Source: Erysipelothrix inopinata (GTDB lineage: Bacteria > Bacillota_I > Bacilli_A > Erysipelotrichales > Erysipelotrichaceae). From it: a DNA stretch of 32,000 bases. The first letter of the stretch is position 1, and the number at the start of each line of letters is the position of its first letter. Of this stretch, positions 1 through 29,770 are shown piece by piece. The stretch is from positions 2,010,001 through 2,042,000 of the forward strand of contig NZ_CP060715.1 of assembly GCF_014396165.1 (NCBI RefSeq), in the 5' to 3' direction. Both the position numbers and the translations under genes were made by a program. The notes beneath the pieces are model-generated. The model searched no databases. It was not told where the DNA came from and saw nothing but the letters and a program-made list of their open reading frames with translations.

Positions 1-3000
1 GACTCGTGTCGAATCACCCAGTAGTTCTTTATCTCCAAGTGTAGAGAGTATCTTGGCTTTTGGATCTTGAGTAAACGCGCGAATTACAACTGATTTTGTA
101 TCTTCAAGAAGCCCAACTTCATATTCAGTTACATTCGGATCGAAAGGTTGTTTGAAGATACTTCCCTCTATTTGAATTCCCGAGAGTGCGTTATTCTTAG
201 AACGTTTATACGTTACATTGAATGTGTACGAGGTCTTCGATTTACCATTCTCACTGTGAACTGTAATGACGAATGGTTTTAACACATTCGCTTCTAATGT
301 TATGGGTTCTTCTGTTTCGTAAATAATTGTTGCGTTAGGATCAGTAGCTGCAATTTTCTTGATGAATGACTTATCAAATGTTTGGTTATCATCCGTCAAC
401 TCTAACGTGTAGTCAGTAACGTTAGGATTAAAGTTCTTATCGAGTGTTCCCGATTCAAATTCGATATTTTTTAGTTTCGAGTTATCACCGACTTCACGTT
501 CCACTATAATACGGTACGTTTGCATCGTATAACCGTCTACTGCTCGAACTCTTATTTCATATATATTTTCTTGCGCAGTTTTCAATTCTAGGACGCCTGT
601 TTTCTCAACAGTTGCATGCTTATCAACAAGATCAAAAATCACTTCATCACTCTTCAAGTTTGTTTTTGAGTTTGGAACTTTCAAGTGATACGTGAAGACA
701 TCCTCTTGGAATGGTTCCTGAAGTTTATACCCTTTAACACTGAGATTTGATAGACGCGTTTCGTCAGTCTTAGCACGCCCAATGTTGATTGTATATTCTT
801 TTACATCACCATTTTCAGCCGTTACTTTAATCACACGTACGCTTTCCCCTGTTGGGAGTAATTTTCGTTCATGTCCCGTAATTCTCGCATTACGATCTTC
901 GGTGCTGACATCAAATGATAATGTATTGGTAACACTTTCCGTATTGAGTTGATACGTATCTTCCGTATAAATGAAGTTTGGTGTCAGAGCACCATTGCTT
1001 GGCTTGATGTTTGTAAGAGCATTATTATCTGAAGCAGGACGTGTGAGGTTGATGGTGTAAACACGATCTCGACCCGAATCACTGGTTACCACGACTTCAA
1101 GTTTGTTGTCTCCTACTTTAATTTTTTTCTGGCCACTACCAGATATTGTTGTGGCAAGACTCTTGACTCCTATATCGACACTCTCAGTTCCGATTGGAAC
1201 TGGATTCACAAGTGTATACTCTTGAATTTTAGGATCAAAGGCGGGTTTCATTTGAAGCACATCCCCTTTTAATTTGACACTTAAATCCTGCAAGTAATTC
1301 TCATGAGATCGACTTCTGTTTACAAACACATGGTAAGTTCTCGTGATACCTGTTTTTGAAGTAACGGGAATTTTAATATGTGTTTCCCCATAAGGAATAT
1401 CATAATTACCCAGTCCCTCAACTTTAGATGAAGTTAATGTTGCTTCTCCATCAAGTTTCAAGGTACTTTCTTCAGGTGTTAAATCTACGTTATAAACAAG
1501 TGTTCCCTTGTAAAAGCTTGGTGTCAACTTATTCTTATTCACAGCCAGATACTCTAAATAGTTATTTGCGTAAATTTGACGATAAGCATGAATCGTATAG
1601 GTTTCTTGGAGATCTTTCTCGTTAGAAGTAACCTCGATAGTTATCGTGTTATCCCCTACTTCAAGATTTTGATTTCCAGTAACTTTATAGGTAGCATTGG
1701 GATCTATTTTTTCAATTTCCATTTGTAATGTCGTAACTTCATTATCAACATTGATAAAGTACTCGTTGACATCTGAGCTAAATCCTTCATCAAATGGATA
1801 GTTATCAACTTTTAAGTTTTTGAGTTTTGCAGAATTAATCGGTGCACGATTCACAATAAATGTGAACGTTTTAACCGTTCCATTTTCTGCTGTAACGTTG
1901 ATATTGAATTGATTGCGGCCCACCTTAAGTTCATGAGTACCAATTCCTGTGAGGGTAGCATTTTTATCTTCTAAGATTCCATCAAATTGAATGGTTTCAT
2001 GAGAATAATCCAAGTTTAATTCATAACTTGTTTGATCATTTTTAAAGGTTTCAAATTGGTTTCCATCAACGGACAATTCTTTAAGGTTTGTGTTATCAGA
2101 ACCTTCACGGTTAACAACAACCGTATAGACTTTACTTGTTGAAGCTTCACTTACAACTTCAACATCAATAAAGTTATCGCCTACTTTAAGGGGTACTGTT
2201 TTTGGATAGTTTACCACTGCATCGTCATCTTCTGCTTTCGCTGACACGTTTACAGAGTGAAGTTCAAAGGGTGCCGACGCTTTATATACTGTCTTATTTG
2301 ATACAAAAGTTGGTTCAAAGCGAACACCACTTATTGATAAATGAGAGAGGTTAGCATTTTTTGATGGAACCTTATCTACTGTTATTGTGTAGTCCTTAGT
2401 TGTTTGACGATCTTCTGCAGTCACCCGTACGATTACAACGTTTTTAGTTCCCGTAACAAAATCATGATTTCCTAATACTTCATAAGTTGCCTTTGGATGG
2501 TATGGGGAAGCAGAGACACTCAGTGCTCTTCGATCCGTCTTTCCAGAATAGGTTGAGACGTTTTTATCAAATTGAATTCCCTTATCAAGCAGTCCATTGA
2601 CATAAAGACCTGCTAGAGACGCATCACTTGATGGTTTACGAGTCACTACAATTTGATAATCCATAATAATGTTATTCTTGGCACGGGTTCTAACTTTAAT
2701 TAAGTTTTCTCCCACTTGCAAAGGATAACTTCCTAAGCCTTTGATTTCAGTTTGGCTTGTGATAGCTTCACCACTTACATCTATTTTGGTCACATCATTT
2801 TCTACCGTCGTTCGGTAGAATTGTTGCTTAGAATCGAATTCCGGTTTAAAAGTACCCGAAGAAGTTTTTAAAGACTTCAAACCAATGTTTTCAGATGCCT
2901 TTTCTTGAACTGTTACATTCAAGGCGTAATCTTTATGTGCTGATAAGCCTTCCGAATCAACTCTTACGATGACACGGTTTTTACCTGGGTTAAGGACATT

Positions 3001-5107
3001 ATCAAGTATTTGAATTTTTGACTTAGGATTGACTGGCAATGCTTCTACCGTAAGTTTACTTGTTCCTTGAGGCACCAGTAAGGAATATTCGATAACATCT
3101 GACTTAAACTCACGATGTAATGCTCCTTCATGAACATACAACGTTTTTAAATCCGTATTGCTTGATTGGTCACGAACAACCTCAATAGTGTAGGTTGCTG
3201 GTGTCCCATCTTCAGCACGTGTTTTAATCTCGATGCTATTCGAACCAAGTTTAAGTTCATGCTTTCCATTACCGCTCATTACCGTAGATTGAATCATTGG
3301 TTCTGTTACAAACTCAATCATATCAATCTCATTGTTTACATTGAGTGTGTATTTATAGGTATCAGGATTAAACTCAGGTTCCATTGTACCTTCAGGTTTC
3401 GTCATGATTGATTTCAATCGTGCATCCACATTGGGTTTCATAGTTATATTCACGCTGTACGTTTCAATACGACCACTTTCCGCAGTTGCTAGAATTTCAA
3501 CTCGGTTTACACCCGTTAATAATTCAATCCCTTGGTGCTTAGAAACTTCAGTAAGTGGATGCTTTGTTTCTGTTATAAGATTCAATCGTTCTTCCGTATA
3601 AGGAATTGTGATATTGTACTCCAAAGTTTCCGGATTAAAATCTTCGATTTCAAAGAGATTGGAGGTAATACTTGTAAGTTCATTGTTATCAGAGATTGCT
3701 TTATTGACTGTGAAAACGTATTGATTTACGTTTCCGTGATCAGCAGTAACACGAACATTAATGGTATTCTTTCCGCCTCGAAGTCTGACGGTATTTCCTG
3801 ATGTTGTATACGTTGCTAATTCATTAGCTAACTCAATCTTAAGATCTGGATTAATCACATCATCTGCGACTTCAAATGTTTGTTTTAACACATCTGGATC
3901 GAATGGATCCATTTCTTTACCACCGATAGAGAGAGATTTGATCTTCGCATTTTTGGATTTGCTACGATTGATTTGAATGCGATAACTTCCTTTTGTACCG
4001 TCTTGAGCTTGGGTATTAATGACGAATTGATTGGATCCGACTTCTAATTTTTTAACACCCAGTCCTTCAACTGATGTTGCATCATTATCGACAACTCCCA
4101 CAAGTTCAACTTCATCAATTTCATTCTCGACGTTCACAACATAATCGTTTAATACCTTTTGGTAATTTGGTGATAATGGTAAAGCCTCATCTTTATGAAG
4201 AATTTCAAGAGATTTTAAGAAGACATTCGAACTTTCTTCGCGATATATATTTAATGTGTAGTTTTTTACCAGACCATTTTCTGCAGTTACTTCATAGGTC
4301 AAGGTATTCATACCTAACTCGAGCTCTGCTGTTTCAGCTTTCACATCGATGACTGCATTAGGATCCATGGTTTCAGCATGAATATCTAAGTCAGATACTT
4401 TCTCGAATTCATGCGGAACGGATACATAATATTCAGTAATATCAGGATTAAATTCTAAGTCTCGTTCTGGTTTCAACATCGTCAAGGATTCCAAGTCCGC
4501 ATTTCCAGTCATATCTCGATTGATTTCAAAGGAGTATGCATGGAAGCTCTCGCCATCTTCACTCATTACATCAATATAGTAATGATTATCGTAACCCGGT
4601 TGTAATTCAATGACACCTTCACCAGTCACAATTTGATAGGCATGAGATTTGATAACTGAGAATTCTAACGAACGAATGCGTGATGGAACTGTCATGCTAT
4701 AGACAACACCCTGAGTTCCAAAATCTTGATTAACATCAAATTTCGGTGATAACTTACAGTAATCATCAGATGCTGAGCAAAGTGAAGGAATCAATCCATT
4801 AATAAGAATATTTTCCGGCATTGATTCTTTTGAAGCAGGGCGATTAACTTTAAGTGTATAAGTTTTAACATCACCATTTTCTGCAGTAACCAGTAAATCA
4901 AATTTCTGATTGCCTGCTGGAATATCATATTTACCATTACCAACGATAGTTGCATGAGGATCCATAGCAACACCTTTGATATTTAGCTCTGTCGTATCTG
5001 CATCCAGATCAACAGTATATTCTGTTTGTTTAAGATCAAACTCTGGAGTTAGTTTACCAGAACTGATTTCAATTTTGGATAAGTGATTATCTTCAGATGC
5101 TTTTCTC
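1..5107 (-). other. Array of about 19 cadherin-like beta-sandwich repeats (about 85-90 aa each, divergent at DNA level); the last is cut by the window edge
   Basis: Each unit starts with a motif like (S/D)xNxxL(K/S)xLx(V/I)..G.L.P.F....EY.(V/L) and ends ..G.N.I.I.VTAE(N/D)G..K.YT(I/L).(V/I)NR. Examples are DNHLSKIEISSGKLTPEFDLKQTEYTVDL...TAENGDVKTYTLKVNR and SDNTNLKELSVDGNQFETFKNDQTSYELNL...TAENGTVKTFTFIVNR. Three more units lie at 5861-6671, and two follow each of glycine-rich copies 1-3. Confidence 0.65.
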
Positions 5108-8100
5108 AATGCGGTAATGCGCACATAACCATTTCCTGAGTTTCCTACTGTATAACCACTGTCTTTACCTGGTATTCTTTCAAGCCCAGATTTTAGTTCT
5201 GTTTCACTGAGATAATATTTCTTATCGACAGTATATCCTTTAGGTTTGTGGGAGGTTTCAGTTAATACGTAACCCGATCCACCACCGCCACCGCGATCAT
5301 CATCAGCTGAGTAGTCAGGATTTACACCACCGCCGCCGTACCAGCCACCACCACCGGCGCCACCACGACCATTGTTAGCATAAACACCGCGACCTCCAAG
5401 ACCAAATTCGCCAAAGAGACCGGCTGCTGTTTGGGACCCACCTTGACCACCTGTACCATAATTTTCTGATCGTGATTGACCATAGTTTCCACCACCAGCG
5501 CCACCTTGTTTATTGGATGCCCCGACAGAACCACCACCACCAGCTACAAGAATACGATGGTACAGTGTTTCACCTGCGACACGAATATCAGAGGCACCAC
5601 CACCATAGACACCATTACTTGCTGAGGCACCACCACCGTTATAACCTCGGGATATTGAATTACCAAATCCCCCAACGTTAATTGTGAGCTCCTCACCTTG
5701 CTTTAAGTGAACGAGGCCATTTGCATAGCCACCTTTACCACCTGATTGTGATCCACGGTTTCCCCCTTCAGCACCCCAGGCTTCAAGTTGGTAATTTCCT
5801 GTATACGGTGCAACAAAAGTTTCACTCTTGCCTTTATAGACATACTCATAAATTTTATCTTCACTACCTTCTCCTGAATCCGATCGATTCACATTGATAA
5901 GATAGACTTGTTTTCCTACATGTGGTTCATCAACTGTTACCGTTATTTTATTTTTACCCGGTCTAAGATAACCATTACCACTGACATTAATTGTTGCTTC
6001 ATGGTCATATGCCACAGCATCGACGTTTATGGAAACCATTCCCATAGGAATATCGACATCATAATCAAAGGTTTCTGGTTCAAACTCAAAATTCACATCT
6101 GTGAGTTTCAATGACTTAAGAAGATTTGTATCTTCTATTCTCGGAGTAATCGTATAAGCATCCGATTCATTTCCCGTTTCAGATGTAATTCGAATTGAAA
6201 CCGGTTTGTTGTTTTCAAACTCAACATTTCCGAGTCCTTCAATGACTTGACCTGGTTTGTTTTTTATCCCATCAATAAGCGCATTTCGATCTTGCTTATA
6301 ATCAAGTTCAATTTCATAATTCATTGTTTTCGAGTCAAAATTATTGATTGATTTTTCATTAATACTTAAATTCTTCAGACTTGTATCTTTAGATGCTTCG
6401 CGATAGATATTCAGTTTATAAATACCCATGGTTCCATCTTGAGCAATGACTGGAAGTTCCACAACGGTTGTTCCTGGCATAATTGTAAGGACTTTATCTT
6501 TATCCCATTGCAACTCCGCATTGTGTTCCGTTACGTCACCTTTGATGACTAATTCATACTGTTCGGTGTCCATAACAACATTATATTCATGTTGGTTCGG
6601 ACTGAACGGTTTATCCATGGTTCCAGAACTTAGTTCTAAAGACTTTAATGTTGCGTCAGATGAATACAGGTTAAGGATTGAAATACGGACAGCACCGTCA
6701 CCCTCTTTACCTGTAATTGTAAATCCCTCAGGGCCTGGCATGCTAAAACTTCCAGCACCTAAAACAGTATTCGTCATTTGGTACTTATTAGAAGGTGCAT
6801 AATTTGTTGGTTTGTATGATTTATCGGTGAATGCATAACTTGATCCGCCACCGCCGCCGTCACCATAATAATCACTGCGTTCGTTACGGTTTCCACCACC
6901 GCCATACCAACCACCGCCACCGCCACCGGCAGTTGCACGATATTGATTGCTATCATAGGTTCCGGATCCACCGTTACCAAATGCACCACTACTTGCTCCA
7001 CCACTGCTTTGGGTTGCACCTTTTCCATAGTTTCTACCAGATGCATTTTGTCCTTCGGTGCCACCACCGTCAGCACCGGCACCACTCTTACCTGCCGCAC
7101 CACCACCAGCTGCAACTAGAATACGATTATATACGCTCGTACCACCGACACGAATATCTGTAGCACCACCGCCTCGTTGGCTTCCATTATAACTTGTACC
7201 ACCGCCATTATAACCACTATTAACTTCACCATCACCACCAACAGTGATATTCAAGATTTCGCCCTTCATCAGGTAAATATCACCTGCAGCATAGGCACCT
7301 TTACCACCTTTTACGGACTCAACACGACCTCCTTGAGCACCCCATGTCTCAAGACGATACATTCCCGTGTAAGGAACGGTGAATTGCTCCATTTTTCGAG
7401 TGTATCCAAATGACATATCTCTTTGTCGATGCGCTTTGATGATATATACAGAATCTTCAATACCTTCACGAGAAACAGTCACGCGAATTGTATTATCTCC
7501 AGGTAAGAGTTCTTCATTTGAAGCACCTTCTACCTTTACTTTCGCATCTTCATCATAAGTCGTTGCAATAATATTCAAGCCACCATATACATAGGACTTC
7601 ATGTCATATTCATATTTATTACTATCAAATATCGAAGAGAATGCATTCGTATACTCATCCACCTTCAAATCATAAAGCTGTGTACTTTTTTCTCGCTTGA
7701 AGTTAATTTTATAATCTTGTTTAACTTTTTTATCAGCAGAGATTACAGAAATAGTTTGCGACGTATTATGGTAGTTATTTTTTACTTTTCCAGTTCCAGC
7801 AATAACTTGACCTGAATGACGTCTATCTACAGTGATTTCATCTTCTTGACGATAATCACCTGGAATAACTATCGTATATTCATATTTATTTGGATCAAAT
7901 CCTTCAATAATTTTTCCATTAATACGAATCGCATCAAGATCTGCTGTATTTTCAGTATTTTTACCAAAATACGTAATTCGAGCATATCCATGTTCTGCAT
8001 GACCAATTTCTCGAATTCCATCAATCCCGAAAAAACTTTCGTTTCCTTGCATAAGTTGGGCTTGAGTCATCTCATATTTACTATCAGGAGCATAATTACC

Positions 8101-11100
8101 AGGTCGGTATGATTGCGGAATGGTAATACCATTCTCAACACGTTTTCCAGTTAAAACGTATCCAGAACCACCGCCACCACCGTAGCCATAGCTGTTACTA
8201 CGTTCGTTACGGTTTCCACCTCCGCCGTACCAGCCACCACCGCCACCACCGGCGACAGCATTATAACTATTACTATCATAGGTTCCACCGCCACCAGTTC
8301 CAAAAGATCCATTGAAATATCCATAGCTATTTTGGGTTGCACCTTTACCATATCCAGAGTTTCCAGATGCATCAACACCGTTGGTTCCACCACCGGCACC
8401 ACCATGACCTGTTTGACCTGCAGCACCACCGCCACCAGCAACTAAAATACGATGATATAAACTCGAGCCGCCAATTCGGAAATCAGTTGCCCCGCCACCA
8501 CGTTGGCTTCCATTGTAGCTGGATCCTCCACCATTGTAACCACGACCATTATTATAATCACCAAAGCCTCCAACTGTTACAGTGATTTCTTCACCTTTTT
8601 GTAGTGTGATGTGTCCAGAAGTATAACCGCCTTTACCACCATTGTAAGTACCTAAAGAACCTCCTTGTGCACCCCAGGCTTCTAACTGATATTCACCATC
8701 GTAAGGCGCAATAAATACCTGACTCTTGGATTTAAAATCAAAGTCGATGCTTCTCATCTTAATAACCTTAATTCTATATTCATTGTCTTCAATTCCATCA
8801 TTTGATACATTTACGATAATGATGTCATTATCTTTATCATCTTTTTGATATATAGTTGTAACCACTGCATTTATATCAAACGTTTGATACTCAACTTCAA
8901 CTTTTTCATTCTTAAAACTTTCAACTGTATACTCATTTTTAGTAAATTCAAAAGCTTCATCATCTTTATATACATGATTAGTTACTTTTAAATCATAAAG
9001 TTTGTTGCTTGGTTCACGCTCAAAATTCAAGGTATAAACCTTGTTTGTTTTTCCATCGGCAGAGAAGACCGTTAATTTTTGCACTTGATTATGATATTCA
9101 AATTCTACTTTCCCAGTACCAGCTACTACCTGTCCCGAGTGACGAAGATCTACAGTAATTTCATCCTCTTGACGATGTTCTCCTGGAATCTTAATGGTAT
9201 ATTCATATTTATTTGGGTCGAATCCCTCAATGATTTTTCCATTAATACGAATCGCATCGAGATCTGCTGTATTTTCAGTATTTTTACCAAAATACGTAAT
9301 TCGAGCATATCCATGTTCTGCATGTCCAATTTCTCGCGTTCCATCAATACCGAAGAAACTCTCATTACCGTTTGCAAGATATTCCTTCTTCATTTCATAC
9401 TTAGAATTTGGTACATAATTTCCAGGACGGTATGATTGAGGAATGGTAATGCCATTCTCAACACGTTTTCCAGTTAAAACGTATCCCGATCCACCGCCAC
9501 CACCGTAGCCATAGCTGTTGCTGCGTTCATTACGGTTTCCACCGCCTCCGAACCAGCCACCACCGCCACCACCGGCGACAGAATTATAACTATTACTATC
9601 ATAGGTTCCACCGCCACCAGTTCCAAAAGATCCATTGAAATATCCATAGCTATTTTGGGTTGCACCTTTACCATATCCAGAGTTTCCTGTTGCATCGACA
9701 CCGTTGGTTCCACCACCGGCACCACCATGACCTGTTTGACCAGCCGCACCACCGCCACCGGCTACTAAAATACGATTATAAATACCGGTTCCACCAACGC
9801 GAAAATCTGTAGCACCACCGCCACGTTGGCTTCCATTGTAACTGGATCCACCACCATTGTAACCACGACCATTATTATAATCGCCAAAGCCTCCGACTGT
9901 TACAGTGATTTCTTCACCTTTTTGTAGTGTAATATGTCCAGAAGTATAACCGCCTTTACCACCATTATATGTACCTAAAGAACCTCCTTGCGCTCCCCAT
10001 GCTTCAAGTTTATATTCACCATCATATGGCGCAATAAAGATTTGACTCTTTGATTGGAATTCAAAATCAAGACTTCGATGTTTGGTAACTTCGATTTCAT
10101 ATTCAAAGGGATCTATACCATCCCTTTGGACGCTTAAAGTAATGAGTTCCTTATTGTCGCTTAGTGGTTCGCGTACGACAGAGCCCACAGCATCCTTATC
10201 GAAAGTCATATAGCTTACTGAAACTTCTTCATCCAAAAAGCTATCGACAAAATATTTTTTCACGTTTGGATCGAAAGAAATATTATCTTTGAACGTATGA
10301 TTATCTGCCTTTAGATTGAAAAGTTTGTTGCTAGGTTCTCGTTCAAAATTCAAGGTATAGACCTTGCTCGTTTTTCCATCTGCAGAAAAGACATTAATCT
10401 TTTGAACTAAATTATGGTATTCAAAATTAACTTTGCCTGTTCCGACGATAACCTGATCTACATGACGTCGGTCTACTGTGATTTCATCTTCTTGAGAGTA
10501 TTCTCCAGGGATTTTTATTGTATATTCTAATTGTTTGGGATCAAATCCTTGAATGATATTTCCATTAATTCGAATGCCGTCAATATCCGCCGAATTTTCA
10601 TTATCTTTACCATAGTATGTAATACGCGCATGTCCATGCGATTCATGACCAATTTCACGTACGCCATCGATTCCAAAAAAACTTTCATTTCCATGTGACA
10701 ATTGCGCTTTATTCATTTCATACTTACTCTCTGGAGCATAATTACCAGGTCGGTAAGATGGGGCAATGGTTATACCGTTCTCAACACGGCTTCCAGTTAA
10801 AACATATCCAGAACCACCGCCTCCACCGTAACCATAACTGTTGCTACGCTCATTTCGGTTTCCACCACCGCCATACCAGCCACCACCGCCACCGCCGGCA
10901 ACCGCATTATAGCTATTACTATCATAGGTCCCACCGCCACCAGTTGCGAATCCACCATTAAAATATCCATAACTACTTTGAGTGGCACCCTTTCCATATC
11001 CAGAGTTTCCTGATGCATCGAGTCCCTCTAGTCCACCACCAGCTCCACCATGTCCTGTTTTCCCCGCAGCACCACCACCGCCGGCAACTAAGATACGGTT

Positions 11101-11519
11101 ATAAATCGAAGTTCCGCCAACACGAAAATCCGTGGCACCACCACCACGTTGACTTCCATTATAGCTAGAACCACCACCATTGTAGCCGCGACCACCATTG
11201 TAGTCGCCATCACCACCGACAGTAATCGTCAGTTCTTCACCTTTCTTAAGGTAGATTTCTCCGGAAGCAAAGCCCCCTTTACCTCCGCGATAATCGCCCA
11301 AGGATCCTCCTTGAGCACCCCAAGACTCTAGTAGATACAGTCCGTCCTTTTCAACATTGAAAGTGACAGGTTTACCTGTATACTCGAAGTTATGAACTTC
11401 GGGTTGTTCACTCGACACTTTTGTTTTCGTATCATTCGCAAAAATCTGATACGACGACAAAAACACTACAAAAAAGAGTAGTCCGAGCCCCCAGCACGAG
11501 AAACTTTTTTAATATTCAT
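1..11519 (-). CDS. Giant secreted/surface repeat protein. It holds five ALK/LTK-like glycine-rich domains and about 28 cadherin-like beta-sandwich repeats. It is 3'-partial (continues beyond position 1). The 5' end is frame-disrupted: ATG at 11517-11519, body frame open from 11508.
   Basis: I split the + strand into triplets from position 1. No tta/cta/tca (reverse-complement stops) occurs until tta at 11509-11511. I read the whole frame through and re-verified it triplet by triplet at 1-540, 4681-4860, 5101-5280, 7021-7140, 7381-7500, 8701-8820, 10081-10140 and 11401-11511. All minus-strand track ORFs in this region are in another frame, as expected for one ORF with no in-window stop. The translation begins ..SFSCWGLGLLFFVVFLSSYQIFANDTKTKVSSEQPEVHNFEYTGKPVTFNVEKDGLYLLESWGAQGGSLGDYRGGKGGFASGEIYLKKGEELTITVGG.. 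and ends at the window edge in a cadherin-like repeat. An ATG with an upstream AAGAGGGG Shine-Dalgarno sequence sits at 11517-11519 but is offset by one base from the body frame. Confidence 0.85.
5108..5860 (-). other. Glycine-rich domain copy 5 (most diverged)
   Basis: The translation reads YEYVYKGKSETFVAPYTGNYQLEAWGAEGGNRGSQSGGKGGYANGLVHLKQGEELTINVGG..GYNGGGASASNGVYGGGASDIRVAGETLYHRILVAGGGGSVG..GRGGAGGGGWYGGGGVNPDYSADDDRGGGGGSGYVL..GNSGNGYVRITAL. Confidence 0.65.
6672..7420 (-). other. Glycine-rich domain copy 4 (diverged)
   Basis: The translation reads FGYTRKMEQFTVPYTGMYRLETWGAQGGRVESVKGGKGAYAAGDIYLMKGEILNITVGG..QRGGGATDIRVGGTSVYNRILVAAGGGAAGKSGAGADGGG..TAGGGGGGWYGGGGNRNERS..GDGGGGGSSYAF..GKEGDGAVRISIL. 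The reverse complement of 7021-7140 was verified codon by codon. Confidence 0.7.
7962..8750 (-). other. Glycine-rich domain copy 3
   Basis: The translation reads FDFKSKSQVFIAPYDGEYQLEAWGAQGGSLGTYNGGKGGYTSGHITLQKGEEITVTVGG..QRGGGATDFRIGGSSLYHRILVAGGGGAAG..GGGGGGWYGGGGNRNERS..GHAEHGYARITYFG. It is nearly identical to copy 2. Confidence 0.7.
9285..10075 (-). other. Glycine-rich domain copy 2
   Basis: The translation reads FEFQSKSQIFIAPYDGEYKLEAWGAQGGSLGTYNGGKGGYTSGHITLQKGEEITVTVGG..QRGGGATDFRVGGTGIYNRILVAGGGGAAGQTGHGGAGGG..GGGGGGWFGGGGNRNERS..GHAEHGYARITYFG. Confidence 0.7.
10610..11400 (-). other. Glycine-rich domain copy 1 (ALK/LTK GRD-like, PF12810-like)
   Basis: The translation reads FEYTGKPVTFNVEKDGLYLLESWGAQGGS..GGKGGFASGEIYLKKGEELTITVGG..GYNGGGSSYNGSQRGGGATDFRVGGTSIYNRILVAGGGGAAG..AVAGGGGGGWYGGGGNRNERS..YGGGGGSGYVL..GHESHGHARITYYG. 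Confidence 0.7.
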
Positions 11520-11644: not shown

Positions 11645-11671
11645 AAAAAAGAGTAGTAAAATATACTACTC
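11645..11671 (-). terminator. Rho-independent terminator (second of two after rpsO)
   Basis: On the minus strand, GAGTAGTA-TATTT-TACTACTC forms an 8-bp stem followed by TTTTTTG. Confidence 0.7.
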
Positions 11672-11689
11672 CTTGATCTCTGAGCGAAC

Positions 11690-11712
11690 AAAAAAAGGAG
11701 CCGAAGCTCCTT
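11690..11712 (-). terminator. Rho-independent terminator immediately after rpsO
   Basis: On the minus strand, AAGGAGC-TTCG-GCTCCTT is followed by TTTTTTTG, 8 nt past the rpsO stop. Confidence 0.8.
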
Positions 11713-12141: not shown

Positions 12142-12597
12142 TTAATATTCAAACACAAATGATTGATTTTGAACAGATTGGAGTATGGGTTCAAGATAAG
12201 CTTTTAAATCATCTGTATCGATTTCAAAGAAGTCTTCTGTTTTACTTCCTTTTTGGTATAAATATAAGTAAGATTCATCATCAGAAGCAACAATAAGTTT
12301 TACGACATATTCTTCATTTAGTTTATCACTGCAAAGATTGTATACTTTCTCATTATCTGTATTTTCAATCCTGATGATTGGTTTTGCATGTTTAACTAAA
12401 TCTTCAAAAGAAACTTTGTCTGCAAGTGTCAATTTTACAGAAACTCCTGGGTTCTCAGGATACGTCTCTGTAAGATAAACATCTTCATAGTGAGCAAGTG
12501 ATGTTATCTGGACATATGTCTTCATCGTGTTAGCAGAACATCCCACCAACATCATTAATAATACTAATAATACGCCAATCCTACGCGTCTGATTCAT
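12142..12597 (-). CDS. Lipoprotein of unknown function
   Basis: The signal peptide MNQTRRIGVLLVLLMMLVGC carries a lipobox (L-V-G-C). I recognise no family. Confidence 0.7.
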   Translation of the reverse strand: MNQTRRIGVLLVLLMMLVGCSANTMKTYVQITSLAHYEDVYLTETYPENPGVSVKLTLADKVSFEDLVKHAKPIIRIENTDNEKVYNLCSDKLNEEYVVKLIVASDDESYLYLYQKGSKTEDFFEIDTDDLKAYLEPILQSVQNQSFVFEY

Positions 12598-28821: not shown

Positions 28822-29770
28822 TTAATAATTAAACATTAATGTTGATAAATAACGTTCTCCAGTATCAGGAAGAATAACTACAATGTTCTTACCTTTGTTC
28901 TCAGGACGTTTCGCAAGCTCAATTGCAGCAAACTGCAGCTCCTGAAGAAATACCTACAAGAAGTCCTTCTTTGCGTGCAATATTACGACCTGTTTCAAAT
29001 GCATCTTGATCTGAAACACGGATAATTTCATCAATTAATGATTCATCTAGAATTGAAGGAATAAATCCTGCACCAATACCCTGAATTTTATGAGGTCCAG
29101 GTTTTTCTCCTGAAAGAATTGCGGATGTTTCTGGTTCTACTGCAACCACTTTGATATTTGGGTTTTGTTCTTTTAAATATGAACCGGTTCCTGTTAGTGT
29201 ACCACCTGTTCCGACACCTGATACAAGAATATCGACAGTACCTTCAGTATCACGATAAATTTCAGGTCCGGTTGTATTGTAGTGCATCTTAACATTGGCT
29301 GTGTTATCAAATTGTGATGGAATAAATGAATTTTCAAAAGATTCAGCAAGTTCATTGGCTTTCGCAATTGCACCTTTCATTCCAGTACTTCCATCTGTTA
29401 GAACAAGTTCAGCACCGTATGCCTTTAATAAGTTACGACGCTCTACGCTCATTGTTTCTGGCATTGTAAGAATGACACGCAATCCCATTGATGCACCAAT
29501 CGAAGCAAGACCAATTCCTGTATTTCCACTGGTTGGTTCAATAATAACTGTTTCATCATTGATTAAGCCTTCTTTTTTAGCTTGTGATAACATTGCGAAT
29601 GCAATACGGTCTTTAACACTTCCACCAGGATTAAAGAATTCAACTTTCGCTAAGATATTTGCTTGGACATCGTATTCTTTTTCAATATTCTTTAAAGATA
29701 CGAGTGGTGTATTTCCGATTAATTCTGTGAGTTCATTATAAATTTTCATAGTAACCTTGTTATCCTCCAT
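28822..29770 (-). pseudogene. cysK: Cysteine synthase A (O-acetylserine sulfhydrylase) with a +1-nt frameshift about 31 codons from the 3' end. The track ORF 28919..29770 is the truncated form.
   Basis: The translation has the PLP-lysine motif NPGGSVKDRIA and the motifs TSGNTGIGLA, GVGTGGTLTG and GISSGAA. After GISSGAAV the frame hits TGA (..AVCCN*). Removing one T from the TTT at 28930-28932 restores ..[39 protein letters not shown], the canonical CysK C-terminus. The span 28822-29770 is 949 nt, which is 3n+1. Confidence 0.85.

Follow-up and report, generated by a model that had tools for sequence, protein, structure and literature searches.

The glycine-rich domain (GRD) of the receptor kinases ALK and LTK, which defines Pfam family PF12810 (ALK_LTK_GRD), is the ligand-binding region of these receptors according to the titles of the PDB entries matched below. 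Reviews treat it as a rare fold of few proteins, and reviews of polyproline-II bundles list only antifreeze proteins, Obg, acetophenone carboxylase, phage gp38 and ALK/LTK; glycine-rich polyglycine/polyproline-II bundles have been described as robust scaffolds. A fungal genome paper lists PF12810 with 'no hint of a function'. Among phages, the tip of Pam3 gp24 (PDB 7YPX) combines a TNF-like with a glycine-rich part, resembles C. elegans ALK (root mean square deviation, rmsd, 2.6 Å over 125 residues), and has been proposed to recognise the host through variable residues located where the conserved glycine motifs end (PMC9608196). Here, we analysed a stretch of 32,000 nucleotides from Erysipelothrix inopinata (contig NZ_CP060715.1, positions 2,010,001 to 2,042,000; hereafter the window), whose minus strand encodes most of a giant protein with five copies of this domain. 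Together with two genes known from orthologous loci, this gene probably specifies a three-tier cohesin-dockerin fibre that carries the GRDs at its distal, fast-evolving tip as multivalent binding modules.

The giant gene is represented by a minus-strand open reading frame (ORF) that runs from window position 11508 to position 1, comprises 3,836 stop-free codons and continues past the left window edge. A preliminary description of this DNA, made from the letters alone, had reported a unit of roughly 250-265 amino acids that recurs five times between 5108 and 11400 with its motifs in a fixed order. Repeat number, span and motif order were all borne out. The five units measure 250-263 amino acids and map from 11397 down to 5104, the motif WGA(Q/E)GG is found at residues 63, 504, 945, 1389 and 1911, and each unit is closed by G.(A/V)RI(T/S), at window positions 10618, 9295, 7972, 6679 and 5113. 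Glycine accounts for 13% of the whole window protein and for 26-38% in 100-residue blocks that lie mostly inside the five units. The units are as follows (scores are to PF12810).

10609-11397, minus strand: GRD1, residues 38-300; 126.7 bits, E = 1.9e-36.
9286-10074, minus strand: GRD2, residues 479-741; 131.2 bits, E = 8.3e-38.
7963-8751, minus strand: GRD3, residues 920-1182; 139 bits; modelled by AlphaFold with a predicted local distance difference test score (pLDDT) of 92.4 and a predicted template modelling score (pTM) of 0.92; Foldseek top matches ALK/LTK; best phage homologue at a template modelling score (TM-score) of 0.83.
6670-7419, minus strand: GRD4, residues 1364-1613; 127.3 bits; a short form without a 10-residue insert.
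5104-5853, minus strand: GRD5, residues 1886-2135; 135.1 bits; AlphaFold pLDDT 94.0; Foldseek top matches ALK/LTK; the most divergent paralogue.

Searched alone, each unit scored far above the PF12810 cut-off of 24.5 (126.7-139 bits, E = 1.9e-36 to 3.4e-40) and aligned from profile position 6 or 7 to 242 or 243 of 243, in agreement with the family membership proposed earlier. A Pfam scan of the 3,836 residues returned only PF12810 and, in the rest of the protein, the cadherin-like family PF12733, which had likewise been anticipated; it revealed no transmembrane segment or tyrosine-kinase domain. NCBIfam has no model for the domain, and an InterPro-style scan would by itself yield its assignment. 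The link to ALK at the level of PDB sequences depended on the depth of the query. A single-sequence phmmer search gave no match and a profile of the five units alone gave chance matches to Nop10 only. A 90-sequence profile, built from the five units and their homologues, matched human ALK in register (E = 8e-5) and recovered seven distinct PDB ALK sequences at E = 8e-5 to 1.1e-4. In this alignment, WGAQGG of the units pairs with GYGAAGG of ALK, LYVYVGG with LYILVGQ, GGGATDIR with GGGATYVF, and VAGGGG with IAAGGGG. The human ALK motifs that the preliminary description had quoted (YSISGYGAAGGKGG, LYILVGQQG, GGGGGGGATYVF and PLIIAAGGGG) were thereby confirmed in register.

The AlphaFold models of units 3 and 5 were compact and confident (pLDDT 92.4 and 94.0, pTM 0.92). 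Their 21 best Foldseek matches in the PDB were all ALK/LTK GRD or TG entries, with E-values of 1.5e-8 to 6.5e-6 and a probability of 1.0. Next in rank followed the cyanophage Pam3 tail fibre 7YPX as a weak match (E = 0.011-0.012, TM-score 0.28), and all others had E > 0.3. The core of the models is a jelly-roll-like β-sandwich, and the poly-glycine runs, which DSSP assigns to neither helix nor strand, reach a pLDDT of 95-98. Thus, Pfam, the sequence profile and structure prediction agree on a domain of the ALK/LTK type. The high pLDDT over the poly-glycine runs, together with the purifying selection described below, shows the units to be folded domains and rules out disordered glycine-rich linkers, an outcome that would have spoken against the proposal. 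By family membership, a polyglycine-II lattice is predicted for the bacterial units as well. A kinship with RTX-type calcium repeats was also considered, as GGGATDFRV resembles their nonapeptide, and was rejected: alanine stands at the fourth position and the motif occurs once per unit.

The five copies differ in length and in their distance from each other. Units 1-3 are 263 residues long and units 4 and 5 are 250, the latter two lacking RVENGITIPQ, an insert of 10 residues. Compared with unit 1, identity is 79, 79, 61 and 48% for units 2, 3, 4 and 5, respectively, and units 2 and 3 are 92% identical to each other. The physical repeat of the first three copies spans 441 residues (1323 nucleotides) and comprises one GRD and two cadherin-like domains. 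DNA identity among the copies of this repeat is only 68-76%, which marks them as old and rules out both a recent duplication and an assembly artefact. Patches of near-identical DNA between units 2 and 3 point to gene conversion. GRD1 and GRD2 differ by synonymous changes in 96 codons and by amino-acid replacements in 55, and residues 161-200 hold 14 synonymous differences versus 0-2 amino-acid changes. As judged from these codon comparisons, the paralogues are under strong purifying selection.

Between and behind the GRDs, which are confined to the N-terminal 55% of the residues encoded in the window, lie 28 cadherin-like domains: 2, 2, 2 and 3 between consecutive units and 19 after unit 5. 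They were mapped with a hidden Markov model (HMM) iterated from the Pfam PF12733 hit.

10081-10572, minus strand: two cadherin-like β-sandwich spacers, residues 313-476; iterated HMM.
8770-9249, minus strand: two cadherin-like spacers, residues 754-913; iterated HMM.
7438-7926, minus strand: two cadherin-like spacers, residues 1195-1357; iterated HMM.
5896-6639, minus strand: three cadherin-like spacers, residues 1624-1871; iterated HMM.
1-5073, minus strand: stalk of 19 tandem cadherin-like domains, residues 2146-3836, cut by the window edge; PF12733 380 bits in total; continues in the orthologous loci L002 and L003.
4756-4779, minus strand: the only two cysteines of the mature protein, C2244 and C2251 (C-x6-C, SLCSASDDYCKL), one cadherin-like domain after GRD5.

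A similar cysteine pair is found at the same place in the distant, dockerin-bearing homologues P0121, P0123, P0124, P0128, P0158 and P0273.

To place the protein within its family, we scanned 1.84 billion representatives of clusters at 50% identity in full with HMMER, using the five-unit profile. The scan matched 10,406 proteins at E <= 1e-3 and 4,754 at E <= 1e-10; where the reviews see a rare fold of few proteins, there are thus about 10,400 clusters, microbial and viral. Among the best 150 cluster representatives, two or more units are present in 149, four or more in 62 and eight or more in 9. Within the same 150, at least ten cadherin-like domains were found in 25 and a C-terminal dockerin in 21, and all 21 dockerin-bearing proteins carry their GRDs in the N-terminal, distal half. 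The layout of GRDs, cadherin-like stalk and C-terminal dockerin is therefore common to 21 of the 150 best homologues. Arrays of up to 9-10 copies occur in proteins that are 5,000-7,600 residues long. Five copies on a cadherin-like stalk had been presented as exceptional; this does not hold, as many giant proteins carry 2-10 copies. The uniqueness of the protein was overstated, and it is one member of a large class. The statement that PF12810 includes uncharacterised microbial members stands and even falls short, the domain being very common in microbes; it is, however, not confined to cellular microbes but common in phages, too. The preliminary description had also known of no functional account of a bacterial member, and full-text searches of the literature likewise yielded no paper on such a protein.

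In other bacterial members, the domain is fused to a prepilin N-terminal methylation motif, to FN3, to Listeria-Bacteroides repeats or to a type-IX sorting tail (57.6 bits). Judging from this domain composition, the fusion partners are display contexts and represent at least three different display routes; the phylum spread of the homologues is read from secretion and anchor signals alone. In the giant multi-unit proteins P0132 and P0134, the GRDs are interleaved with a different repeated module of about 300 amino acids (YTYGYRFTP...LR.YFG), which indicates that the domain is arrayed on unrelated stalks in other lineages. These proteins would also carry a type-IX secretion sorting tail, which was confirmed for P0134.

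The part of the giant protein that lies beyond the window can be followed in orthologous loci. Among the homologues of a unit, a partial 'glycine rich domain-containing protein' from a metagenome-assembled genome (MAG) of Erysipelothrix sp. ranks best, and its locus is syntenic with the window. LepA is 98.5% identical between the window and the orthologous MAG. The giant protein of the MAG (locus L003) is 86% identical over 3,329 residues and also contains five units, and a second Erysipelothrix MAG (L002) is 94% identical over the last 400 amino acids of the window protein. In both MAGs the stalk continues and ends in Big_2 and a C-terminal type-I dockerin, and as judged by Pfam the C-terminal 2,105 amino acids of the orthologue add Big_2 and Dockerin_1. 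The dockerins of L002 and L003 score 32-34 bits against a cut-off of 22.9 and show the repeats DLNGDGEVDVLD and DVNEDTEVDVLD. By extrapolation from these sequences, the whole giant protein would measure about 5,500 residues.

In the orthologous loci the giant gene (gene 1) is followed by two further genes, at these positions.

L003, 25107-34155; L002, 6310-11343; also L079, 31223-41210: downstream genes 2 and 3.

The start of gene 2 overlaps the stop region of gene 1. In its product of 2,453 amino acids, a signal peptide is followed by a cohesin (32.5-34.2 bits; cut-off 24.1), a cadherin-like stalk and a C-terminal Dockerin_1 domain (33.3 bits). Gene 3 encodes 557 amino acids with a signal peptide, an N-terminal domain, cadherin-like domains, a spacer rich in proline, lysine and glutamate, and a C-terminal transmembrane helix followed by basic residues. 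Its N-terminal domain stays below the Pfam Cohesin model and shows a weak likeness to ScaB cohesins (E = 0.006). It is 36% identical (E = 2e-42) to the counterpart beside a nine-unit homologue, and this counterpart passes Pfam Cohesin with 36.6 bits. The three-gene layout thus recurs beside a distant relative of the giant protein, which has nine GRDs in 7,069 amino acids. Its order is a cargo with a dockerin, an adaptor with a cohesin and a dockerin, and an anchor with a cohesin. LPXTG was not found in the homologues.

The best-known role of cohesin-dockerin pairs is the organisation of carbohydrate-active enzymes and their binding modules. As the operon uses both cohesin and dockerin, the giant protein could be a subunit of a cellulosome-like complex, with the GRDs as carbohydrate-binding modules or polysaccharide-acting enzymes gathered by these pairs. 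A jelly-roll-like β-sandwich core is a common fold among carbohydrate-binding modules, and the residues that are near-invariant in the microbial family, i.e., E26, D92, R94, R103, K42, W28 and W176, could form a sugar-binding or catalytic site. Nevertheless, we consider this explanation unlikely. No catalytic or carbohydrate-binding family was detected by Pfam or NCBIfam in genes 1, 2 and 3, Foldseek returned no enzyme or carbohydrate-binding module at E < 0.3, and neither the window nor the retrieved parts of L001-L003 showed a carbohydrate-active enzyme gene. A glycan ligand, moreover, would be compatible with a binding fibre, so that only the enzyme version is a true rival.

Homologues of the GRD in phages give a further indication of what such a domain may do at the end of a fibre. 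The unit-3 model had 96 matches at E <= 1e-3 among predicted viral structures (BFVD). The best was a siphovirus protein (TM-score 0.83, rmsd 2.9 Å, 38% identity, E = 4e-23), and others came from Caulobacter phages, cyanophages ('virion structural protein') and giant viruses. Automatic naming in UniProt labels many of the phage homologues 'receptor protein-tyrosine kinase', an annotation artefact. At least 222 loci were confirmed in a pattern-based scan of viral contigs; a tblastn search of GenBank phages with unit 3 had no hits, an outcome that probably reflects masking of the glycine runs by the low-complexity filter. Phage members can hold two or three units per protein, and the phage proteins examined (including loci L004, L053 and L080) fall into PHROGs 1589, 5811, 7388 and 18810, all annotated 'unknown function'. 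In L004, GRD proteins are located between a weakly tail-like gene and an endolysin, and in one other phage a GRD protein lies two genes after the tape-measure gene. The giant gene itself is not part of a phage tail module: its neighbours in the window include no phage genes, and the housekeeping synteny is also present in the MAG.

A comparison of the window with the MAG (L003) revealed that the head of the protein changes faster than its surroundings. Nucleotide identity is 88.5-99% in the housekeeping genes, 86.7% in the stalk and 91% in GRD5, and 71-79% in GRD1-4 and their spacers. At the protein level, units 1-4 are 66-80% identical, unit 5 is 96.8% and the stalk 93.8% identical; GRD5 is thus the best conserved unit between the genomes. 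Within GRD1-4, the share of positions that mismatch the orthologue rises from 13.8% in glycine runs through 23.3% in strands to 31.2% in other loops, and it is highest, at 40-45%, in the loops spanning residues 123-172. At 18 positions, most of which belong to these loops, copies 1-3 agree with one another within each genome, whereas the two genomes differ. As far as these alignments can tell, GRD1-4 are a conserved scaffold with fast, concertedly changing loops, which by analogy is the same design as in the phage gp38 and gp24 tips.

Concerted change within a genome is also expected of partners that must keep matching. The 18 shared positions and the patchy gene conversion of copies 2 and 3 would hence suit GRDs that bind each other, the protein being a self-associating matrix or aggregation factor in which flat polyglycine-II faces stack between fibres. 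Ligand binding reportedly brings two receptors together in the ALK/LTK structures of 2021, and cadherin-like stalks are frequent in aggregation factors. We regard self-binding as decidedly unlikely all the same, because gene conversion, or the tracking of one external ligand by all copies, explains the concerted change equally well, and because phage homologues at tail positions indicate foreign receptors.

The fast divergence of the head relative to the genome background is likewise a trait of immune-exposed surface proteins. Given the description of polyglycine/polyproline-II bundles as robust scaffolds, the GRDs might have no specific ligand and serve as rigid, protease-resistant bulk in a protective or antigenically variable coat. 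This appears very unlikely to us: a maintained function is suggested by loops that vary on a conserved scaffold and by the purifying selection among the paralogues, and every member with a described role (ALK/LTK, the Pam3 fibre) has been described as a binding module.

For the fibre with a binding tip, the beginning of the giant gene requires attention. The frame that starts at 11508 offers no start codon yielding a signal peptide, and three elements upstream and downstream of this position are relevant.

11517-11519, minus strand: true ATG start behind the ribosome-binding site GAGGGG; in the assembled sequence it stands in a different frame from the long ORF; the same ATG is present in the orthologous locus L001.
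11487-11491, minus strand: G5 homopolymer, G6 in the orthologue; a 1-nucleotide frameshift 10 codons past the ATG (window CTGGGGGCTC, L001 CTGGGGGGCTC).
11437-11519, minus strand: predicted Sec-type signal peptide MNIKKVSRAGGLGLLFFVVFLSSYQIFA, read with the frameshift mended and presumably cleaved ahead of NDTK; identified by visual inspection of the sequence and its orthologue.

The orthologous MAG reads through from the shared ATG as MNIKKVSRAGGLGLLFFVVFLSS..., and G6 versus G5 in the window is the sole difference. An A6 run at 11503-11508 was ruled out as the frameshift site, since it is unchanged in the orthologue while the G-run differs. With the G-run corrected, the protein is, as its predicted signal peptide indicates, exported.

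A comparable lesion was found in cysK, a housekeeping gene on the minus strand of the same window (ORF 28919-29770). It is truncated by a 1-nucleotide indel in a T-run at 28918-28936 (GCAGTT-T-GCTGCA), and its last 36 residues, ending in STLMFNY, continue in another frame. A second homopolymer indel of one nucleotide in such a gene makes an assembly error the simpler explanation of the frameshift in the giant gene, and the G5 is most likely such an error. The missing G at 10 codons past the ATG and the lack of an alternative start yielding a signal peptide would also be seen if the gene were dead in this strain, or phase-variably off at the G-run, the array having no present function. We hold this to be highly improbable, given 3,836 stop-free codons at about 37-42% G+C, the similar indel in cysK, and a run of 5-6 G that is short for a slippage switch.

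Taken together, the fibre probably works as follows. The 3,836 residues encoded in the window would form the N-terminal part of a fibrillar surface protein secreted by the Sec route, and the three proteins of the operon would plug together, dockerin into cohesin, to form a membrane-rooted fibre hundreds of nm in length with the GRDs at its far end. Each GRD would provide a rigid scaffold in which glycine runs are predicted to pack on the β-sandwich, and the variable connecting loops may bind a ligand on the host, another microbe or a surface. The four similar copies GRD1-4 would contribute avidity, and the conserved GRD5 may serve a separate, constant role. A multivalent adhesin had already been suggested in the preliminary description, and this remains the reading we favour in view of the display fusions, the distal and fast-evolving head and the analogy to phage tips and ALK. 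Specifically, we infer binding of an external ligand because the members with known roles are binding modules, because the fusion partners serve display, and because the variation mirrors that of phage receptor-binding tips. The hallmarks of fibrillar adhesins would also be present, i.e., the corrected signal peptide, a tandem stalk of 28 domains and surface attachment via the dockerin.

Several observations weigh against this picture. The assembled giant gene carries a frameshift close to its start. Neither the dockerin nor the two cohesins nor the anchor is encoded within the window; they are known only from orthologues that are 86% and 94% identical, and the pairing of individual dockerins with individual cohesins is assumed. 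TM-scores to ALK/LTK are only 0.43-0.51, with an rmsd of 8-11 Å, which makes the bacterial domain a distant, smaller relative of the ALK/LTK GRD. Conserved polar residues of the microbial family (E26, D92, R94 and R103) are Y, F or P in ALK and could have a role other than stapling the scaffold. Finally, the full-text searches turned up no binding experiment on any bacterial member.

On a broader scale, one may ask whether all of this belongs to a single story. The GRD would then be an ancient receptor-recognition module of microbes and phages, from whose microbial pool the metazoan ALK/LTK ligand-binding domain descends; the operon would build a new surface organelle, the three-tier cohesin-dockerin fibre of hundreds of nm, whose hypervariable head of four phage-like domains decides on the host tissue or the neighbouring bacterium; and the system would be the first tractable one for folding and binding of polyglycine-II lattices. 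As a joint statement this is tentative, and we would not expect all of its parts to hold.

With respect to its surroundings, the giant gene appears as a separate transcription unit.

11648-11712, minus strand: two terminator-like hairpins 3' of rpsO, which set off the giant gene's own transcription unit on its upstream side.

The rest of the window holds housekeeping genes typical of Bacillota, including rpsO, lepA, fmt, holA, comEC, comEA, greA, udk, mltG, alaS and cysK. Two genes upstream of the giant gene, an ORF of 151 amino acids (12142-12597, minus strand) carries a lipoprotein-type signal (LLVLLMMLVGC). It has no Pfam or NCBIfam match, shows 93% DNA identity in the MAG and has no evident link to the fibre.

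The interest of the locus derives from the size of the family, the absence of a functional study in the literature searched, the link to phage tails, the hypervariable head and the adjacent cohesin-dockerin relay. A single recombinant unit is small and confidently predicted, and hence amenable to structural and binding work. Erysipelothrix counts a pathogen of animals and humans among its species; in this genus, a giant surface fibre whose head evolves quickly would be a candidate antigen and factor in colonisation. The operon also offers a clear example of cohesin-dockerin pairs that, on our reading, would serve to build a fibre rather than an enzyme complex.

How does this locus compare with the systems described so far? 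The receptors ALK and LTK (PF12810; PDB 7NX1, 7LRZ, 7MZY, 7N00 and 7LIR) share with the window units the Pfam family, the order of motifs in register and the extracellular location, and they are the only PDB folds that match the units at E < 1e-5. The window protein differs from them in lacking a transmembrane kinase, an EGF-like module and a known cytokine partner. Its units of 250-263 residues are shorter than the approximately 300-350 residues of ALK/LTK and occur in five copies instead of one. Moreover, the microbial tryptophan in LExWGAQGG, the aspartate and arginine in GGGATDIR and the arginine in RILVAGGGG correspond to Y, Y/F and P in ALK.

The fibre tips of Pam3 gp24 (7YPX) and of Salmonella phage S16 gp38 (6F45) are built on glycine-rich polyglycine-II bundles. 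The window units would resemble them in placing a TNF-like sandwich with a glycine-rich lattice, in which the glycine scaffold is conserved and the loops vary, at the distal end of a fibre (PMC9608196). The window gene, by contrast, is chromosomal and stands among housekeeping genes, and its product is a monomeric array of beads on a string, whereas the phage proteins form a trimeric fibre tip with a helical shaft and a chaperone.

Cohesin-dockerin architectures are exemplified by the ScaA/ScaB/ScaC tiers of Acetivibrio cellulolyticus, and a non-enzymatic dockerin binder is known in CttA of Ruminococcus flavefaciens. The orthologous operons share with cellulosomal scaffoldins a C-terminal type-I dockerin on the cargo, an adaptor with cohesin and dockerin, and a cohesin with a cell anchor, all in one operon. 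In contrast to cellulosomes, there are no carbohydrate-active enzymes, each scaffold has one cohesin and not an array, and the stalks are cadherin-like. The anchor is a C-terminal transmembrane helix and not SLH repeats or a sortase signal, and the genus is not known to be cellulolytic.

Giant fibrillar adhesins such as staphylococcal Ebh and SasG, SiiE of Salmonella and the RTX ice adhesin of Marinomonas offer the broadest parallel. Like them, the window protein would be a secreted protein of several thousand residues with tens of Ig- or cadherin-like stalk domains and with candidate binding domains distal to the anchor. Unlike them, its candidate binding module is one for which no bacterial study was found, and it is repeated and interleaved with stalk domains. 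Attachment, in turn, would proceed through a non-covalent, two-step cohesin-dockerin relay rather than through LPXTG and sortase, type-1 secretion retention or an outer-membrane plug.

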